Below are positions 23,577 to 33,575 of a DNA stretch of 64,000 bases, in pieces. The translations under genes were made by a program, and so were the position numbers. Numbering within the stretch: the stretch's first letter is position 1; every line of letters starts with the position of its first letter. Source of the DNA: Shigella phage A2. Below the pieces are notes generated by a model. The model worked only from the letters and a program-made list of their open reading frames with translations. It did not search any database and was not told the origin of the DNA. The DNA lies in the sequence record OP197928; one strand, 5' to 3'.

Positions 23577-23606
23577 ACAACACGAGGGACTTGTAAACTA
23601 CATCTT
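23577..23606 (-). promoter_or_regulatory. T4-type early promoter (-35 GTTTAC, -10 TATAGT on minus strand)
   Basis: Plus GTAAAC at 23601..23606 and ACTATA at 23577..23582, 18-bp spacer; nearly identical cassette at 39204..39233. Confidence 0.55.
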
Positions 23607-25655
23607 GAACTTTTTAGACATTCCGTTGATGTTAACCAAAGAAGCCAAGATTTGAGAAACTTCGTTTTTCTCTTCTTTTGATTCTTCTACAAGGAATTGA
23701 TTAAACCCAGCCATTGGACGAACTTCACCAGTTTCCATCAGATGATCGCCATCATATACCGATTCTTCTAATTGTTCAGAAGGAGGAACGATTGTGCCTT
23801 CGATTAGATACTTGTTATAAGCAGTTTCTTTCATCATGTACGTGCTTACTTTATTAATCTTCAACAAAATTCCACGCGGTAAAATAACTTCAGCTTCTGA
23901 TGGAAATCCTGATAAATGACCTGGAACGATAACTTTAATTCGCTCAGCTCCTTTTATTACCATACCTACGCTAGTTTCAGCATCTTCATTAGCATATGCA
24001 GAATGACTGCCCATATGCATTAAATCTTCAGCATCAACAGAACCTTCTCCTTCACCAGAAAATACTGCGCCGGAATCATCTAGAGCCATATAGTTTTTAC
24101 CATGCTCACCGAAGATATTTGGTTTAAGCGATGTTGATACGAAGTTCTTGAAATAAAACATTTTATTTTCAATATTATGACGTAAAGTTTTAAAGGTAAC
24201 TTCTTGTCCACGATAAAGCGTAGTTCCTGGAGGAAGAACTGAACCTTTGGCAAAGGCAGAATCCATTGTCTCGATGTGTTTAATAGCTCGTTCCATGTAT
24301 TCTTCACGGGTAGAATCTGGTTTACCCAAGAGGAACGAGTTCATTTCAACATATGAATCTGCACAATAATCTTCAATTACATCAGACTCAGCCTGAGTCA
24401 GTCCTTTTGGAGTTACTTCGGTGCTTGCGTATTCATATGCCTGAGCAGCAGATTCATTAATCAATTTATAAATGCCATTCATGACAAATTGAATAATAGC
24501 TACCTTTTCGTCTGGCGTGGCTTTAGAACCTTTAACTAAATCATTGATAATTTTCTTAATAACATCAAAGCTATTAGAAATATTAATGTCAGCGAGATCG
24601 CTCAAAATTTTATCGGTTTTATAATCAAAGAATTCTTTATTCTTTAAATATTCTTGAGAACCTTGATATGTTATATCGCTCTGCAGCTTGATAGATGGAT
24701 CACGTAAACGTGCATGGGCCAATGCAATATGATTTCGGAAGCTTTCTAGTTCATAATCATTAGATTTAAAACGAGAAGCACTCCTCATACCACCGATAGC
24801 TCCTTTGCCGAAGTTTGAACCAATCTGAATAACGCCAGAGTTCATTGGTCCTTCTGCTTTATATACCGGAACTTTAGATTCAAACTCTTGATATTTCTTA
24901 GCGGCGAAGCTATCACCCTGAAGTGAAGCATCGACAGTAGAATATTGAGCTTGTGCTGCTAATCGACGACTAATTTTAGTTTTCTGAATAACAGCTTGAT
25001 CCGTGCGCTTATCATTTTCTAGAGCAATAGAAGCGGCAACAGCAACAGCTTTAGGAACAGCATTACCTGTTTTAACGTCTACATAAACATCACCAACCTT
25101 TGATTCAACTTTTGTGAATAACTCAGTTGAAATAGGAGGTACACCTGGAATGTCTTCTAAATTAGCAGTTTTACGATAAACCATAATATATGCATACTTT
25201 TTATCATAGTCCCAGATTTCCTTTAAAAGAACATATCGACCTGCTCCTTTAGTACGTACTAAACGGTCAGCAATAACTTGCATTTGACGAGCAGCGCCAT
25301 TTGTTTTACTTTTTAGTACGCGGAATAGGCATGCGTCAATTTTATACTGTTTCATTGTTTGAAGAGCAGTATCAAAAACCGCATTAATGACACCAATTGG
25401 ATTTCCACCCAAGTTTTTAAGTTTAACTAATGATAGTTTCTCATTAACACCTATCATTACGATATGCATCATTTTATCGCCTGGCTTAACGTTTTTATTT
25501 GTATCACCGCCAGAGGTGTATGTACAAAATCTAAATCCAGGAAGCACACTTTCTTCACCGGCTTGAATAGCAAAAATTTGAGGTATTTTATGCTTAGGAT
25601 TTAAGTTAACAACCGGCGCCGAAGCGCCGTCAAATAATTCTGTAATAAGTTCCAT
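23598..25655 (-). CDS. Alt-family ADP-ribosyltransferase paralog (685 aa)
   Basis: N-terminus MELITELFD...; C-terminal ART signature YRGQ ... FVSTSL ... SEAEVILPRG (R / S-T-S / E-x-E); paralogous to adjacent 698-aa ORF. Confidence 0.85.
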   Translation of the reverse strand: MELITELFDGASAPVVNLNPKHKIPQIFAIQAGEESVLPGFRFCTYTSGGDTNKNVKPGDKMMHIVMIGVNEKLSLVKLKNLGGNPIGVINAVFDTALQTMKQYKIDACLFRVLKSKTNGAARQMQVIADRLVRTKGAGRYVLLKEIWDYDKKYAYIMVYRKTANLEDIPGVPPISTELFTKVESKVGDVYVDVKTGNAVPKAVAVAASIALENDKRTDQAVIQKTKISRRLAAQAQYSTVDASLQGDSFAAKKYQEFESKVPVYKAEGPMNSGVIQIGSNFGKGAIGGMRSASRFKSNDYELESFRNHIALAHARLRDPSIKLQSDITYQGSQEYLKNKEFFDYKTDKILSDLADINISNSFDVIKKIINDLVKGSKATPDEKVAIIQFVMNGIYKLINESAAQAYEYASTEVTPKGLTQAESDVIEDYCADSYVEMNSFLLGKPDSTREEYMERAIKHIETMDSAFAKGSVLPPGTTLYRGQEVTFKTLRHNIENKMFYFKNFVSTSLKPNIFGEHGKNYMALDDSGAVFSGEGEGSVDAEDLMHMGSHSAYANEDAETSVGMVIKGAERIKVIVPGHLSGFPSEAEVILPRGILLKINKVSTYMMKETAYNKYLIEGTIVPPSEQLEESVYDGDHLMETGEVRPMAGFNQFLVEESKEEKNEVSQILASLVNINGMSKKFKM

Positions 25656-25658
25656 GAT

Positions 25659-27755
25659 TTATCCTTGAACGAACTTGTAAGGCATGTTTGCAATATCTAT
25701 GCAAGACGCAATAATTCCAAGAGATGATTCTACTTTTTGTTTAACATTTGATGAAACAAATGATGCAAAGTCAACTCTGTCTTCTATTTCAATATCACCT
25801 GTCATTGTAACTACTTCACCAGTTTCCATTAGACGGTCACCGTCATAAATTACTGATTCGGTGAGTTCTTCCGTAGTCATAACTTCAGCTTGAATGAGTT
25901 TTGTATTATTAGATGTTGTTCCGTCATTATTAGAAGCATCAGTTATTTTATTAACTTTGACCATCAATCCTCGTGGTAGAATAACTTCAGCTTCTGTTGC
26001 TATTCCGAGACTTCCTGGATATACAACATTAACTTTATGAGCTCCATCAATTGCCCATCCTATTTGAACTTTAACGTATTCTGGATTTTCTTTATACGCT
26101 CTTATTTCGTTTGGATTAATAGTTATTCCTTCTTCATTTTTATCAACTGTTAATTCATTACGAGCTTCTGGTTCTAAAAGACCAATGCCAGCATGTGTAA
26201 TTCCAAAACGTCCAAAAATGATAGGAGTTAAAGAAGTAGATACAAAATTTCTGAAATAGAACACTTTATTTTTAACTAGTGCTTCGTATATAGGAGCAGT
26301 CATACTTTGAGCACGATAAACTGTAATGCCTTCTGGTATACGGTCACCATTTTCAAAAGCTGAATCTAAGTTATTTATAGCAGATTCAATTTCTTTTTCA
26401 CTCATTACATCATATCGTTCTGGATTGTAGCGTCCTAAAAGAAGATTATTGATGTCAGTATATCCTGAACCGCAATACTCTCTAATGCCGCGCTTTTGTG
26501 ATGGAGTATATTTAGAACCATCACGGGCAATAGTAATATCAATCATTGGACCTGCACCAATTCCAGAAAAACTATAAATCATTCGTTTGAGGAATTTAGT
26601 TTTTGCTGCGTTCCAGGAATTTTTAGTTATTTCTTCCCAGACTTCATCTGGCTGCCCTTTACGAGTTTTATTATGTTTATCAAGCCAAGTATCTTTATAT
26701 TCTTCAAAGAATTTATTAATAGCTGCTGCATACTTCTCTAAACATTTTATTGAAGTAGTCGGTTCATTTTTAATCGCATTAAGAATTACATCTTTAATTT
26801 TTTCAGAAACTTCATTAACCTCACTTTTTGAAAAGAATTTATAGTCATAATGAAGTTCATCTGCGGTTCCTTCGGCAATAATTTTTGCTGCCTTAGTTTT
26901 AGAAGCTAATGAATTAATTCCAAGTTTCATTTCTTCTGCTTCGGGAATTAAAGGAGCGGTAGCAGGTTTATTGAAATTAGCTGCGGTAGATTCATATTTC
27001 TGGAATAATTCACTTTCAAATCTAGAAGATTCCAATGACTGACTTTGTGCAATTGCTCTACGGGAAATTTTAACTTTAACGATTACAGCTTGGTCAGAAC
27101 GTTTATCATTTTCTTGTGCAATAGATGCTGCAATTGCCTCATTTTTAGTTACTTGAGCTCCAGTATCTTTATTGATATAAACATCGCCGACTTTCGATTC
27201 AACTTTAGTAAAGAGCTCGGTGCTAATTTCCGGAACTCCTGGAATGTCTTCTAGTGATACATTTTTGCGATGTATAAGAATATATGCATACTTTTTATCA
27301 TAATCCCAGAGTTCCTTAAGAAGGACGTATCTGCCACCTGAACGACTGCGGATAAGTCTATCAGCAATAACTTGAATTTGTCGAGCTTGACCAGCAGTTT
27401 TAGACTTAAGAATACGAAGCATACAGGCATCAATTTTATACTGACGCATCGTCTGCATCGCAACAGTAAAAACTGAATTGATGTAATTAATTGGGCTTGG
27501 ACCGAGACCTTTTAATTTAGCAATTGAACCTTTAGCAGTTAATGTAAAAGGAACAATATGCATCATTTTATCGCCCATCTTTAAATCGCGATTAGTATCA
27601 CCTCCAGATGTATAGGTACATAAACGAAAGCCTGGTTGTTCAATTGCGTCATCAACATGAACTGAAAAAATTTGTGGTATTTTCTTCTTTGGATTTAAGT
27701 TTGTAATCGGAAGAGTAGTATCTTCGTCAAATAATTCTGTAATGAGTTCCATCAT
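25659..27755 (-). CDS. alt: Alt ADP-ribosyltransferase (698 aa), packaged internal head protein
   Basis: N-terminus MMELITELFDE...; ART signature YRAQ ... FVSTSL ... TEAEVILPRG; sits next to the DNA ligase gene as alt does in T4; which of the two paralogs is the T4 alt ortholog is not certain. Confidence 0.75.
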   Translation of the reverse strand: MMELITELFDEDTTLPITNLNPKKKIPQIFSVHVDDAIEQPGFRLCTYTSGGDTNRDLKMGDKMMHIVPFTLTAKGSIAKLKGLGPSPINYINSVFTVAMQTMRQYKIDACMLRILKSKTAGQARQIQVIADRLIRSRSGGRYVLLKELWDYDKKYAYILIHRKNVSLEDIPGVPEISTELFTKVESKVGDVYINKDTGAQVTKNEAIAASIAQENDKRSDQAVIVKVKISRRAIAQSQSLESSRFESELFQKYESTAANFNKPATAPLIPEAEEMKLGINSLASKTKAAKIIAEGTADELHYDYKFFSKSEVNEVSEKIKDVILNAIKNEPTTSIKCLEKYAAAINKFFEEYKDTWLDKHNKTRKGQPDEVWEEITKNSWNAAKTKFLKRMIYSFSGIGAGPMIDITIARDGSKYTPSQKRGIREYCGSGYTDINNLLLGRYNPERYDVMSEKEIESAINNLDSAFENGDRIPEGITVYRAQSMTAPIYEALVKNKVFYFRNFVSTSLTPIIFGRFGITHAGIGLLEPEARNELTVDKNEEGITINPNEIRAYKENPEYVKVQIGWAIDGAHKVNVVYPGSLGIATEAEVILPRGLMVKVNKITDASNNDGTTSNNTKLIQAEVMTTEELTESVIYDGDRLMETGEVVTMTGDIEIEDRVDFASFVSSNVKQKVESSLGIIASCIDIANMPYKFVQG

Positions 27756-27804: not shown

Positions 27805-27993
27805 TTAATAATCTATTGGTAAGAGAGTACGATATATTTCAAACTTTGGACCTTTTTCATAGGCATCAAATGTTTCTGTGAATTTATTATAAGCATATGC
27901 ATCTATAAATTCAATCATAATTTGTGATACAGAAGTAGAAACATCTCCACCTTCTTTTTGAGCAACGACAATTGTTTCTAAGTAAGCTTTCAT
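27805..27993 (-). CDS. Hypothetical 62-aa protein between ligase and alt
   Basis: ORF overlapping the gene 30 stop by 4 nt; no recognisable motif. Confidence 0.4.
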   Translation of the reverse strand: MKAYLETIVVAQKEGGDVSTSVSQIMIEFIDAYAYNKFTETFDAYEKGPKFEIYRTLLPIDY

Positions 27994-29453
27994 AGACCAG
28001 TTACCTCATGAAAATCACCAAATACATCCTCGAATGTATTAGCTTTAGTTTTATCTTCACGTAAACGAATCGCAATTGGAAGAAATAATTTTACGTAATC
28101 AGTGCGGCCATCAGATTTTAACCAACCATTGCATTCGCACTCTAGAATTTTTCCAATATAATAATTTTGGTTTTCCATAATGCGAGTACGGTCAAGTTCA
28201 TGTGATTTTACGCCGGCTTTATCTTTTAAGCCTGAACCAGCATTTACTTTAATTTTTCCACACTCTGATTCAAGAATAAATCCACCTGCTTTAGTAGGGT
28301 CTTTACGGTGAGGATAAATTCCTACAATTTTTAAATCAACATCAATTACTTCTTTAAATTTATAGAGATTTTTTGAACGAGCATTTTCCCACAATCCATC
28401 GGTATTTTTGAGAATAATACCTTCAAGACCTTGGTCAATATACTTTTTATAAATTACCTTAGCTTCATCTAGGTTATTTACTACCTGGTTTTCAATTAAA
28501 ATTACTTTATCATATCCTGATGTCATTTGTTCTAGTTTAGAAAAACGTACATCATATTTTAAACGAAACGCCGGAAGACCGTATATTTCTACCAACGGGA
28601 CATAATCCCAGACCTGAAACTTCATGCATTCGGCTTCTTTTTCGGAAATGGTTCCTTTTAAGGATTTATTGGCGATTCCATTAGAAGCAGTACGAGATTC
28701 CGCTACTTCGGCGAATTCTTTAGCTTTACTAATTTCAGGATAAGCATCAAAAAGAAAATCTAGGCCTTCTGGTTCCTTTTTAACTTGCTCATGGTATACC
28801 AATTCGCCATCAATTAACACACCTTCTGGATGAATCTGGCGGGCTTCAGCAGTCATTTTGATTAATTCTTCCTTAAGAAGATCTAATCCTAGATATTCAT
28901 TACCAGCTCGTGATAAAAGACGAACATCATCTAATTCATCGCCTCGGACTTCAGCAAAACACCGAGCTCCATCTGCTTTTAACTGTGCAAAGGCTGGAAA
29001 TTTGATATTCTTATTAATGCCTTTTTCATCATAAGAACTTGCCAGCATTTGAGGTTGTTCAGGAATTAAACCTGGCCAAACTTTGTTTGCAATAGATACT
29101 GAAGCACCGCATTCAAGGTCTCGCATCATCACTCGACGCAAAACTTCAACATCATCCTTTTTACCATCGGTGATATATCCAGTCAATTCCTCAATTGCAG
29201 CATTTCCGGTCAATTTCCGAGTAGCTAACGTGAATTCAATGAAGTCAAGCATATCGGTAATGGTCAGCATTCCAAAACTCTGGGTAGCAATACCAGGTTT
29301 AGGCCATTTCTTGATATAATACTGTAACCCACGAGAATAAGTCAGACGATATACCCGTTTAAGCAATTCATTATCTTTATTCTTTTCAAGAATTGCTTGC
29401 TTCTGCTTAGTTGATCCAATAGATGCTATTTCATTCAGAATTTTAAGAATCAT
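27990..29453 (-). CDS. 30: ATP-dependent DNA ligase gp30
   Basis: 487 aa; adenylation lysine motif (KADGAR); near-identical to recalled T4 DNA ligase. Confidence 0.97.
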   Translation of the reverse strand: MILKILNEIASIGSTKQKQAILEKNKDNELLKRVYRLTYSRGLQYYIKKWPKPGIATQSFGMLTITDMLDFIEFTLATRKLTGNAAIEELTGYITDGKKDDVEVLRRVMMRDLECGASVSIANKVWPGLIPEQPQMLASSYDEKGINKNIKFPAFAQLKADGARCFAEVRGDELDDVRLLSRAGNEYLGLDLLKEELIKMTAEARQIHPEGVLIDGELVYHEQVKKEPEGLDFLFDAYPEISKAKEFAEVAESRTASNGIANKSLKGTISEKEAECMKFQVWDYVPLVEIYGLPAFRLKYDVRFSKLEQMTSGYDKVILIENQVVNNLDEAKVIYKKYIDQGLEGIILKNTDGLWENARSKNLYKFKEVIDVDLKIVGIYPHRKDPTKAGGFILESECGKIKVNAGSGLKDKAGVKSHELDRTRIMENQNYYIGKILECECNGWLKSDGRTDYVKLFLPIAIRLREDKTKANTFEDVFGDFHEVTGL

Positions 29454-29719
29454 TGCTCATCCTTCAAAGTTTGGTTTACAGCTCTATTATAAATCAATTC
29501 ATCATTAAGCTCAGGCAAAGACTTATGATATGTAGTTCTAACTTTATTTCCTTGCATCCAGTGCTTGATATAAATGAAACCTTGCTCTACACATTTTTTA
29601 AAAATTCGTTCGTCTTTTTGAGCTCGGAATTCTGGATTGCATCTAAAAAATTGATTTACGTGACCGTAATCACGTGTAGTATTACCTTCATTTTCATAAA
29701 TAGTGTGAACGACAAACAT
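29450..29719 (-). CDS. Hypothetical protein (T4 30.1 position)
   Basis: 89-aa ORF, translationally coupled. Confidence 0.5.
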   Translation of the reverse strand: MFVVHTIYENEGNTTRDYGHVNQFFRCNPEFRAQKDERIFKKCVEQGFIYIKHWMQGNKVRTTYHKSLPELNDELIYNRAVNQTLKDEQ

Positions 29720-30582
29720 TAGAATGCTCCTTGGAAAATATTATCACCACTAGTAAATCTATTAAAATACCCTGCATCACCAGGCTTAGTATAACTCCAC
29801 GTATGGAATGGATTCATATGATACGGGTGTGTATAATATGGATTATATGGATGTGTATAATATGGATTATACGGATTAAATCCAGGAGTTCTCCAGGTAG
29901 TGTTCCAACGAAAAGAATCGTTTTTAACCATCTTCTCAATTACATCTTTTATAGCTTTTTCACTATCAAAACTTTCTTTATTTTCCTTCGGTGAAAAAAG
30001 CTTATTTTCTACATCATTCCATGTATAAACTCGCTGAGCGGTTTTTGGAATATTGTCACGCTCTCCTCGCGCCATCCAATAAACAGGAACATTTAATATT
30101 TCACTCGCATGATCGCAGTGGTGAGCAAGATCGTCAATATAACAAATTACGTTATATTTCTCTTTTGCCTTTTTGAATAACTCTTCTTTTGAAGAATCAT
30201 GACCACACATCATTACTTCTGAGAAGGCACCAGGAAAAAGAGCATTCAAATTAAATTGACGATTCAACAGAGCGTCAATAGAATCACCCAACGCTGTAAC
30301 AGCTACAAAATTATAATCTTCTTTTAATTTGTTAATTACGCACAGGGCGTCTTTATATGGAGACAAATAACGAATAAAATCTGAACGATTGTATTTTTCA
30401 ATTAACTTGACGCCAAGTTCTTCATCACAATTAAAGAGTTTACCCGGAGAAATAAATTTCTCATCTTGGATCATTTTTAAAATATGTTCTAACGGAAGAT
30501 TATATTTCTGAGCAAAATAAGGAAGGCCTGATTGCCAGCTTAAACATACTCCATCAATATCAGTTAAAATAGTAGGCTTCAT
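29719..30582 (-). CDS. HAD-superfamily-like hydrolase with C-terminal Tyr/Pro-rich repeat tail (T4 30.2 position)
   Basis: 287 aa; N-terminal ILTDIDGV (HAD motif I, DxDG); C-terminal NPYNPYYTHPYNPYYTHPYHMNPF. Confidence 0.6.
   Translation of the reverse strand: MKPTILTDIDGVCLSWQSGLPYFAQKYNLPLEHILKMIQDEKFISPGKLFNCDEELGVKLIEKYNRSDFIRYLSPYKDALCVINKLKEDYNFVAVTALGDSIDALLNRQFNLNALFPGAFSEVMMCGHDSSKEELFKKAKEKYNVICYIDDLAHHCDHASEILNVPVYWMARGERDNIPKTAQRVYTWNDVENKLFSPKENKESFDSEKAIKDVIEKMVKNDSFRWNTTWRTPGFNPYNPYYTHPYNPYYTHPYHMNPFHTWSYTKPGDAGYFNRFTSGDNIFQGAF
29825..29872. repeat. Perfect-to-near-perfect 24-bp tandem duplication inside the HAD-like ORF
   Basis: GGGTGTGTATAATATGGATTATAT / GGATGTGTATAATATGGATTATAC, encoding the YNPYYTHP repeat on minus strand. 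Confidence 0.8.
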
Positions 30583-31043
30583 AGAGAGTCTCTTAATAGA
30601 TTTAACACATCAATAAATTCAGCTTCGGTTAGTATTGTATCATCTTTTGTTAGACCACTAGCCATGCTGTGCTTCAAAACTTTTCCTTTCGAGGCTTGTA
30701 ATGCATCGCGAAAGCCCTTGTTTTGGAACGCTGCTTCAAAATATGCATTTGTGTATAATTCTTTCCATGCTTCGGAATATCTTGAAAACGGAGTTCCAAG
30801 CCAGAACAACGTGCCACGGTCCTGAGCTCTAGCATAAGCTCGTCCAGCTTGTTGGGCGGCAAGCCCGGATAACCCAAATATACGACGCTGTTGTTCAACA
30901 TTTTTCACCTTGCATCCTTGGAGGAATCCTTCGAGACCTCCAAATTGGATACCGTCCATAACAAAAGGCCATTGGGCGAAATTACTTAATGCACATGATG
31001 GCCATCTAAAATTGCTTCTAATCTCTAGCTCAGACATTTTCAA
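30579..31043 (-). CDS. NADAR / YbiA-like (DUF1768) domain protein (T4 30.3 position)
   Basis: 154 aa; ALSNFAQWPFVMDGIQFGGLEGFLQGCK parallels the recalled E. coli YbiA core DFSNFAAWPIKVDGKTWPTSEHYFQAQK, plus downstream W and LKH segments. Confidence 0.6.
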   Translation of the reverse strand: MKMSELEIRSNFRWPSCALSNFAQWPFVMDGIQFGGLEGFLQGCKVKNVEQQRRIFGLSGLAAQQAGRAYARAQDRGTLFWLGTPFSRYSEAWKELYTNAYFEAAFQNKGFRDALQASKGKVLKHSMASGLTKDDTILTEAEFIDVLNLLRDSL

Positions 31044-31245
31044 TACTTATAATTTCAACATCAGCCCAATGACCATAACTTGGTAAACGGTCTTCAATAG
31101 ATAATCCGCCATCATATTTAAGCATTTTAATTGTCATAATATATGGCTCTAAATGGTCTTCAGTGAGCGGAGAGACATCAGTCACACGATAAGTAACTTC
31201 GACCATTTCCGTGCCCAGTAATTTCTGGATTAATTTCTTAAACAT
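31030..31245 (-). CDS. Hypothetical protein
   Basis: 71-aa ORF in the 30.x cluster. Confidence 0.45.
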   Translation of the reverse strand: MFKKLIQKLLGTEMVEVTYRVTDVSPLTEDHLEPYIMTIKMLKYDGGLSIEDRLPSYGHWADVEIISIENV

Positions 31246-31249
31246 TTTA

Positions 31250-31537
31250 TTAAAATCTCATCTGAAAACCGTGTGATTTAACATTACCGCCGCCGATATC
31301 AGAAATGTTAATTTCACGCGCAATTGAAGGGTCAATGTCAATTTCACGATTAAGTTTAGTGATAGCTAAAGTATCGCGGCCATTTACAGTACGGAACTCT
31401 AAAGGGCAGACTACATTAACGTAGTTTTTAATTGATTCACTGGTAGGTTGCAAATGAGCAGGAAGGTCTTTAGGTGCCTTAGAGAAAACCACTTCACAGA
31501 AATTTTTGCGGGTATCAAAATAAGTAGTCATAAACAT
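31250..31537 (-). CDS. Hypothetical protein
   Basis: 95-aa ORF in the 30.x cluster. Confidence 0.5.
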   Translation of the reverse strand: MFMTTYFDTRKNFCEVVFSKAPKDLPAHLQPTSESIKNYVNVVCPLEFRTVNGRDTLAITKLNREIDIDPSIAREINISDIGGGNVKSHGFQMRF

Positions 31538-32460: not shown

Positions 32461-32488
32461 AAATAAAAAAGGACTCCCGAAGGAGTCC
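32461..32488 (-). terminator. Intrinsic terminator (GGACUCC-UUCG-GGAGUCC then UUUUUUAUUU on minus strand)
   Basis: 7-bp GC stem with tetraloop, followed on minus strand by a T6 run. Confidence 0.75.
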
Positions 32489-32493
32489 TCAAC

Positions 32494-32670
32494 TTATGCT
32501 TTCTGCTTACCAAAACGAGAAGCATCATCTCGAAGAACCGCACGTGCTCGGCGCATGATCTTCTCAACAGTTTGATTGATACGAGAGTTCGACCCACGCT
32601 TGTAACCAGCGCGTTTAGAATCACCAACTTTCTTTTCAACTGCTTTCTTTGCTTTAGCTTGTTTTGCCAT
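32494..32670 (-). CDS. Small highly basic protein (T4 30.9 region)
   Basis: Lys/Arg-rich 58 aa from ATG 32670 (ORF track extends to 32712); overlapping 84-aa alternative frame judged less likely. Confidence 0.4.
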   Translation of the reverse strand: MAKQAKAKKAVEKKVGDSKRAGYKRGSNSRINQTVEKIMRRARAVLRDDASRFGKQKA

Positions 32671-32864: not shown

Positions 32865-33113
32865 TTACTTCAGTGTTACCACAAAGTGACGAACTGCTTT
32901 TCGTGCAGCAGAAGCCAGAGGCTTAGCATATTTAAGTTCATCTTTTTCCTGAAGCTCAGCAGCTAATGCAGTTTGAGCAGGATTCAGATGTTTGAAATAA
33001 CGCAGGATTTCAAGAGCTTCGGCTTCAACATCAATAGATGCGCCATAGTTTTCGTGACCATTATTCCATGCGTTTCGTTGCAGTTCAAGAGCGTGTTGTA
33101 ATTGTTTAATCAT
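32865..33113 (-). CDS. rIII: rIII lysis inhibition accessory protein
   Basis: 82 aa, T4 rIII size, adjacent to gene 31. Confidence 0.8.
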   Translation of the reverse strand: MIKQLQHALELQRNAWNNGHENYGASIDVEAEALEILRYFKHLNPAQTALAAELQEKDELKYAKPLASAARKAVRHFVVTLK

Positions 33114-33239: not shown

Positions 33240-33575
33240 TCACTTATAAAGACACGGAATAGCTTTATAGTGACAGGTAACGAATTTTTGCTTAATTTCT
33301 TTTGGCTGCTTAAGACCCAGAGCTACAAAAGGATGAGGAACGTTTCGAATTTGACCAACTGGAAGAGAAGTCAAATCACCAACTTCGCAGAAACCTTCAG
33401 GAACATCAGGACCAACAGAATGAACTACACACAGTTCAGGAACTTCACCTTGAACACGTTTACCGATAATAAGTCCTGATTCTGTAACTTCTTCATCACC
33501 GGCTTGCGCAGGTTCAGAAACTAAAATAACATATTCACCGACAGCACGAATTGGTAGCTGTTGTACTTCAGACAT
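33240..33575 (-). CDS. 31: Co-chaperonin gp31 (GroES-like)
   Basis: 111 aa, matches recalled T4 gp31. Confidence 0.93.

Follow-up and report, generated by a model that had tools for sequence, protein, structure and literature searches.

An intact T4-type adfN allele in Shigella phage A2, predicted to encode a core-only NADAR enzyme that reverses DarT1 guanine ADP-ribosylation

Introduction

Resistance of phages T2 and T4 to the DarTG1 defence system was mapped by Johannesman et al. (Nat Commun 2025) to gene 30.3, which was renamed adfN (anti-DarT factor NADAR; PMC11825919). The T4 product, AdfN(T4), is a DNA ADP-ribosylglycohydrolase specific for guanine and is required for growth of T4 on DarTG1 hosts; the purified protein strips ADP-ribose off DarT1-modified DNA (PMC11825919). 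AdfN(T4) is weakened by the substitutions E36A and K43A and by a C-terminal truncation like that of RB69, a DarTG1-sensitive phage whose own allele is frameshifted and has lost the last 15 residues and with them the C-terminal helix (PMC11825919). In vitro, the T4 protein hydrolyses guanine-ADPr and not thymine-ADPr (Toxins 2024, PMC11125620); nor does it remove cytosine-ADPr, and the protein consists of the bare core domain (Toxins 2026, PMC12945103). In HIDEN-SEQ, a transposon screen of T4, adfN was dispensable on K-12, and insertions were lost only on DarTG1 hosts (bioRxiv 10.1101/2025.11.20.689424). The methods of the Toxins 2024 study list the T4 NADAR (gp30.3) construct as residues 1–208, and T4 gp30.3 is 152 aa in length (PMC11125620).

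Full activity of AdfN(T4) has been reported only in T-even infection, with weak rescue of non-T-even phages (PMC11825919), and uninfected cells are not saved from DarT1 toxicity by the protein (PMC11125620). These two observations point to a further part of the AdfN mechanism, presumably a phage cofactor or a localization step.

The NADAR superfamily is split by a residue of the last strand, which is Glu in YbiA, Asp in the DarT1-associated NADARs and His in phage gp30.3 (PMC11125620, PMC11543638, PMC12945103). The catalytic glutamate and the phosphate-coordinating lysine are seven residues apart both in PnNADAR (E43/K50) and in the NADAR of E. coli C7 (E88/K95) (PMC11543638). The ybiA gene shares an operon with dinG, rhlE and ybiB that is under LexA control and is induced by DNA damage (Toxins 2024, PMC11125620), and the NADARs of T4-like phages have been described as early genes that are expressed along with ARTs (Iyer et al. 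2022, PMC9503650).

Here, we describe a member of this superfamily in the genome of Shigella phage A2 (sequence record OP197928), from which a stretch of 64 000 nt, referred to below as the window, was analysed. As the gene and its biological role, like the fold and chemistry of its product, were already published in 2023–2025, none of these is a new finding, and the analysis adds little as discovery; its main use is in annotation.

Results

Extent of the ORF and its junctions

The ORF that drew attention lies on the minus strand and was called mechanically from 31043 to 30579, with a TTG start and a product of 154 aa. A second candidate start, an ATG at 31037, is found two codons 3′ of the TTG and yields 152 aa. 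The true start is almost certainly this ATG, because T4 30.3 is annotated from the equivalent codon (459 nt) and because the published E36/K43 numbering is in register solely with it. The two additional codons, TTG AAA, are therefore probably not part of translated AdfN. Thus, the ORF of the preliminary description is real, and its start has been moved by two codons. The features of the locus are collected in Table 1.

Table 1. Features of the adfN locus of Shigella phage A2 (positions are those of the window)
Feature	Position	Strand	Basis
Alt-like ADP-ribosyltransferase, PF03496, one of a tandem pair	23598..25655	-	
Alt-like ADP-ribosyltransferase, PF03496, one of a tandem pair	25659..27755	-	
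DNA ligase gp30	27990..29453	-	
gp30.2, translationally coupled downstream of adfN	29719..30582	-	
ATGA overlap, adfN stop / 30.2 start	30579..30582	-	
adfN (gene 30.3) CDS, 152 aa + stop, predicted NADAR-fold DNA ADP-ribosylglycohydrolase	30579..31037	-	
C-terminal alpha-helix, residues 138–151, intact	30585..30626	-	AF2 model; T4 identity
His123 codon, end of last strand (LKHS), phage gp30.3 clade marker	30669..30671	-	
Lys43 codon, phosphate-coordinating lysine (PnNADAR K50, E. coli C7 NADAR K95)	30909..30911	-	
Glu36 codon, catalytic glutamate (PnNADAR E43, E. coli C7 NADAR E88)	30930..30932	-	sequence read; alignment
ATGTCTGA overlap, 30.4 stop / adfN start; translational coupling in the early minus-strand cluster	31030..31037	-	
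Two extra codons TTG AAA from the mechanical ORF call	31038..31043	-	T4 annotation; E36/K43 numbering
30.1 (DUF3045), 30.2, adfN, 30.4, 30.6, 30.7, 30.8	around adfN	-	
rIII	32865..33113	-	
gp31	33240..33575	-	

Within ATGTCTGA, the start codon ATG of adfN shares bases with TGA, the stop codon of the upstream gene 30.4. A scan for promoters and terminators around adfN returned background levels.

A 75-codon ORF is nested inside adfN in the +1 frame (window 30674..30901, minus strand). This ORF corresponds to T4 gene 30.3′, which is annotated as 'internal translation in a different reading frame'; it matches a Pfam family of its own (PF11097, DUF2883; E=1.5e-44). The 30.3′ frame is open in T4, in T6 and in the more distant Dhakavirus VR5, where its product is far more diverged than the VR5 AdfN. 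The internal ORF may be a genuine gene, or its open frame may be a side effect of the conservation of adfN.

Genome neighbourhood

The region around adfN carries the gene set of a T4-type phage (Tequatrovirus), all on the minus strand, and the order 30-30.1-30.2-30.3-30.4 is that of T4, with adfN between 30.4 and 30.2. The gene and its junctions are 97% identical to T4 at the nucleotide level. The 3 kb stretch around adfN shares 98.5% identity with Shigella phage SH-1, and at least 80% of this stretch is covered in 481 phage records.

Upstream of adfN, gene 30.5 of T4 is absent (window 31030..31537, minus strand). The 30.4-like ORF (71 aa) has just 36 of 66 residues identical to T4 gp30.4, save for the conserved C-terminal YGHWADVEIISIENV, and directly adjoins 30.6, whose product is 93/95 identical to that of T4. 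The missing 30.5 and the divergent 30.4 explain why the match of the region to most T4-like records is split in two, with 94% coverage. A strong terminator-like hairpin was found at 32469..32490 (minus strand), with a 9 bp stem containing five GC pairs followed by a T-run. It falls in the interval from rIII to 30.8, on the strand that encodes the early cluster, just 3′ of a 30.9-like ORF that ends at 32494.

The two ART genes that had been noted near the ORF are real: both products match PF03496, and the genes lie 2.8–7 kb from adfN. The tandem Alt-like proteins are full-length (685 and 698 aa) and share approximately 45% identity (294/660). Of the two, the upstream copy has 72% identity to T4 Alt. 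In the downstream copy, the first 116 residues correspond to two small ORFs of T4, alt.-1 (54/61) and alt.-2 (54/55), which the T4 annotation calls remnants of an old alt duplication; phage A2 therefore keeps intact the alt paralog that was lost from T4.

The ORF is the phage A2 copy of T4 gene 30.3

A gap-free alignment of the predicted protein to T4 gp30.3 (NP_049816) showed identity at 147 of 152 residues (97%) and the same C-terminus. The five differences from T4 (S67A, V82T, P89E, I104F and I125M) all lie away from conserved positions; I125M is two residues from H123, and Met is also found here in T6. A Pfam search returned PF08010 (Phage_30_3, 'Bacteriophage protein GP30.3') with E=1.5e-68; the match scored 229.3 bits (gathering cutoff, 36) and spanned the full profile (positions 1–138 of 138). 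In PHROGs the protein matched phrog_652, of unknown function. The preliminary description had proposed looking at the T4 30.3 position for an ortholog; that ortholog is the ORF itself, at the same locus. We conclude that phage A2 carries T4 gene 30.3 (adfN) in the form of this ORF.

A protein that is 100% identical is present in Escherichia virus KFS-EC3. Using tblastn, homologs of gp30.3 were detected in 1510 phage records, mostly of Straboviridae with Escherichia, Klebsiella, Shigella, Aeromonas, Acinetobacter, Vibrio and other bacteria as hosts; the phages with a homolog come from at least 10 host genera. Many of the tblastn matches ended at residue 144, suggesting a class of alleles with a truncated or variant C-terminus. 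This idea was ruled out, as the T6 protein is 152 aa long with the same C-terminus and the early end of the matches is an artefact of where the alignments stop. Some gp30.3 relatives among the metagenomic matches are ~201 aa in length.

Assignment to the NADAR fold

Searched as a single sequence, AdfN matched PF08010 alone in Pfam at E≤10, with no match to PF08719 (NADAR), and no match was found in NCBIfam, in PADLOC or, by phmmer, among the PDB sequences; Pfam models the gp30.3 clade separately from NADAR, as PF08010. The assignment consequently rests on profile and fold evidence. For the profile, a family alignment was built of 67 full-length relatives drawn from a search of 5.8 billion proteins. 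This profile identified E. coli YbiA (2b3w) by hmmsearch with E=0.0044, and the aligned segment was the one flagged in the preliminary description, where a YbiA sequence had been quoted; the quoted stretch proved to be exactly residues 28–55 of E. coli K-12 YbiA. Comparison of the family with YbiA by hhalign gave a probability of 93.9% (E=1.5e-7) over residues 15–122. PF08719 was touched individually by 27 of the 67 relatives, at best with E=1.5e-7, and several relatives bear the JGI name for the YbiA/DUF1768 family.

An AlphaFold2 model of AdfN made from the family alignment had a mean pLDDT of 93.3 and a pTM of 0.88. [quoted passage not shown] The top three Foldseek matches in the PDB were YbiA and two NADAR structures, those from Phytophthora nicotianae (8bau, with ADP-ribose) and Geobacter lovleyi (8bat), followed by noise. 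In BFVD, a database of predicted viral structures, homologs of phage gp30.3 ranked best, ahead of dozens of viral proteins annotated as NADAR. The proposal of a NADAR/YbiA-like domain is thereby upheld on both counts: a NADAR match was obtained through the family profile, and the model superposes best on YbiA/NADAR structures, with no sign of an unrelated fold.

Active site and C-terminal helix

Residue E36 is invariant in all 67 family members and aligns to the Glu of YbiA SEHYFQAQK, and K43, conserved in at least 90% of the same 67 members, aligns to the Lys of YbiA QAQK. The E36/K43 spacing of seven residues is that of PnNADAR and E. coli C7 NADAR. Residue H123, which follows a strand at residues 120–122 in the AF2 model, is likewise invariant (67/67), and a one-residue extension of the hhalign alignment would place it opposite the Glu of YbiA LVE. 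Residues 126–152 are the same as in T4, with no frameshift of the RB69 type. The active site (E36, K43 and H123) and the C-terminal helix are intact in this allele.

Comparison with described systems

AdfN(T4) and the protein encoded in the window share their position, the overlapping start and stop codons, E36/K43/H123 and the C-terminal helix. The neighbours differ slightly: 30.5 is absent from phage A2, 30.4 is divergent and the tail of 30.2 is longer. The DarG1 antitoxins (BC4488-type NADARs, such as those of G. lovleyi, 8bat, and E. coli C7) are encoded beside darT1, whereas adfN in the window lies beside 30.2 and 30.4; since no darT1 is adjacent, it is an orphan NADAR. A PADLOC search of the AdfN ORF and gp30.2 gave no match. 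DarG1 also carries an N-terminal extension and a catalytic Asp in the last strand, in contrast to the 152 aa core and His123 of the AdfN studied here. Furthermore, DarG1 acts as an antitoxin, a part that T4 AdfN cannot play in uninfected cells (PMC11125620, PMC11825919).

E. coli YbiA (2b3w) is 18–21% identical to AdfN and has Glu (LVEH) where AdfN has His123. It is encoded by a chromosomal gene and belongs to a family tied to riboflavin metabolism (PMC11825919), whereas AdfN is phage-borne. AdfN(Bas32) and AdfN(Bas60), from T5-like and Vequintavirinae phages, are also orphan phage NADARs that are guanine-specific and counter DarTG1 (PMC11825919). However, they belong to other NADAR clades and were independently acquired, and they are active without T-even infection, rescuing DarT1 toxicity in uninfected cells (PMC11825919).

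Discussion

We consider it very probable that the gene is the ortholog of T4 adfN and encodes a core-only NADAR enzyme that reverses guanine ADP-ribosylation by DarT1. The preliminary description had guessed at such an anti-defence role, the reversal of DarT-type guanine modification, and this has been shown experimentally for T4 gp30.3/AdfN (PMC11825919, PMC11125620, 10.1101/2025.11.20.689424). By analogy, we infer that the phage A2 allele behaves like AdfN(T4). AdfN would be produced early in infection. In a host in which the DarT1 toxin ADP-ribosylates guanines in the phage DNA, so that replication is blocked, AdfN would cut the N-glycosidic bond between ADP-ribose and guanine; the DNA would be restored and phage replication could resume.

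A further suggestion was that the enzyme modulates the phage's own ADP-ribosylation. AdfN would then mainly edit or erase the marks set by the Alt-like, ModA and ModB enzymes, either arginine-ADPr on protein or ADP-ribose-linked RNA, and so tune host takeover. The presence of two intact PF03496 genes on the same strand and in the same early cluster is consistent with this idea, as are the early co-expression of phage NADARs with ARTs (Iyer et al. 2022, PMC9503650) and the ability of NADARs to strip guanine-ADPr from RNA (PMC12945103). Nevertheless, little can be read from gene proximity inside a conserved block of T4-type synteny, and the sole reported phenotypes are DarTG1-specific, with adfN dispensable on E. 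coli K-12 lacking DarTG1 (10.1101/2025.11.20.689424). The reported substrates all carry base-linked (guanine N2) ADP-ribose, and none is arginine-linked (PMC11125620, PMC11543638, PMC12945103). We found no report in the literature of AdfN acting on Alt/Mod products, and nothing computed speaks for it; beyond gene proximity and early co-expression, the suggestion found no backing, and we regard it as very improbable. The same resemblance to E. coli YbiA that identified the fold could also point to a small-molecule N-glycosidase, clearing riboflavin-pathway by-products or soluble immune signals derived from ADP-ribose, and having no part in DNA repair: YbiA, an annotated N-glycosidase, is the best match at the sequence level and nearly the best in fold, and a preference of phage NADARs for ADPr derivatives of low molecular weight was proposed by Iyer et al. 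2022 (PMC9503650). However, the last-strand Glu that defines YbiA is replaced by an invariant His, and the published phylogeny places the clade nearest the DarG1 antitoxins and not YbiA (PMC11825919). AdfN(T4), moreover, frees DNA of ADP-ribose in vitro, and its loss sensitizes T4 specifically to DarTG1 (PMC11825919, 10.1101/2025.11.20.689424). A small-molecule role therefore has hardly any likelihood in our judgement.

The reversal of DarT1 modification could also be one instance of a wider role, in which AdfN counters any guanine-directed nucleic-acid ADP-ribosyltransferase, be it another DarT1 variant, a secreted toxin or an RNA-targeting system. DarTG1 would then be no more than the first target to be identified. 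This reading extends the main explanation and is compatible with it; we regard it as less likely than not. AdfN acts on the product and not on the toxin, and is therefore independent of toxin structure (PMC11825919). Guanine-ADPr is hydrolysed by the T4 NADAR when it is the product of ScARP, an unrelated transferase (PMC11125620, PMC12945103), and reversal of guanosine ADP-ribosylation, both on DNA and on RNA, is reported for all four NADAR families, the phage one among them (PMC12945103). The spread of homologs across phages of at least 10 host genera is in keeping with such a role. On the other hand, AdfN is inactive on thymine-ADPr and cytosine-ADPr (PMC11125620, PMC11825919, PMC12945103), and a second defence system countered by AdfN is not reported in the literature that we found.

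The product of the coupled downstream gene was considered as a candidate partner. We judge it improbable that 30.2 supplies the T-even partner of AdfN, or that AdfN also acts on nucleic-acid ADP-ribosylation by phage Alt/Mod. Gene 30.2 lies close 3′ of 30.3 in the distant Straboviridae Acj61 and RB16, with one or two small ORFs between them, and the N-terminal ~180 residues of gp30.2 are 49% identical between the window and Acj61. The linkage is absent for gp30.3 homologs outside Straboviridae, whose neighbours are unrelated: on a 308 kb metagenomic contig the gene that follows the gp30.3 homologs is unrelated to gp30.2, and in a Rhizobium phage the homolog adjoins a helicase gene. The T4 transposon screen reported adfN alone as lost on DarTG1 and did not mention 30.2 (10.1101/2025.11.20.689424).

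The gp30.2 protein of phage A2 is 287 aa in length, compared with 278 aa in T4. Its N-terminus contains a DxDG motif (MKPTILTDIDGV), and its tail is encoded by a region with a 24 bp tandem repeat (29821..29876; 2.3 copies, 90% matches), which encodes NPYYTHPY twice within a Pro/Tyr/His-rich stretch unlike T4. Searches of gp30.2 against Pfam and the PDB sequences gave no match. The Acj61 homolog touches PF00702 (HAD) below threshold (E=0.0057), a weak hint that gp30.2 may be HAD-like. A single-sequence AF2 model of gp30.2 residues 1–196 reached a pLDDT of only 43.6, too low for use.

The intact adfN allele predicts that phage A2 would resist DarTG1-type defence, which is relevant to host-range prediction. 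In most of the 1510 homolog-bearing phage records, the gp30.3 homolog is labelled 'hypothetical protein'. Mislabelled homologs were also seen, as 'prohead core protein' in T6 (NC_054907.1) and as 'putative homing endonuclease' in Rhizobium phage P10VF (KM199770.1).
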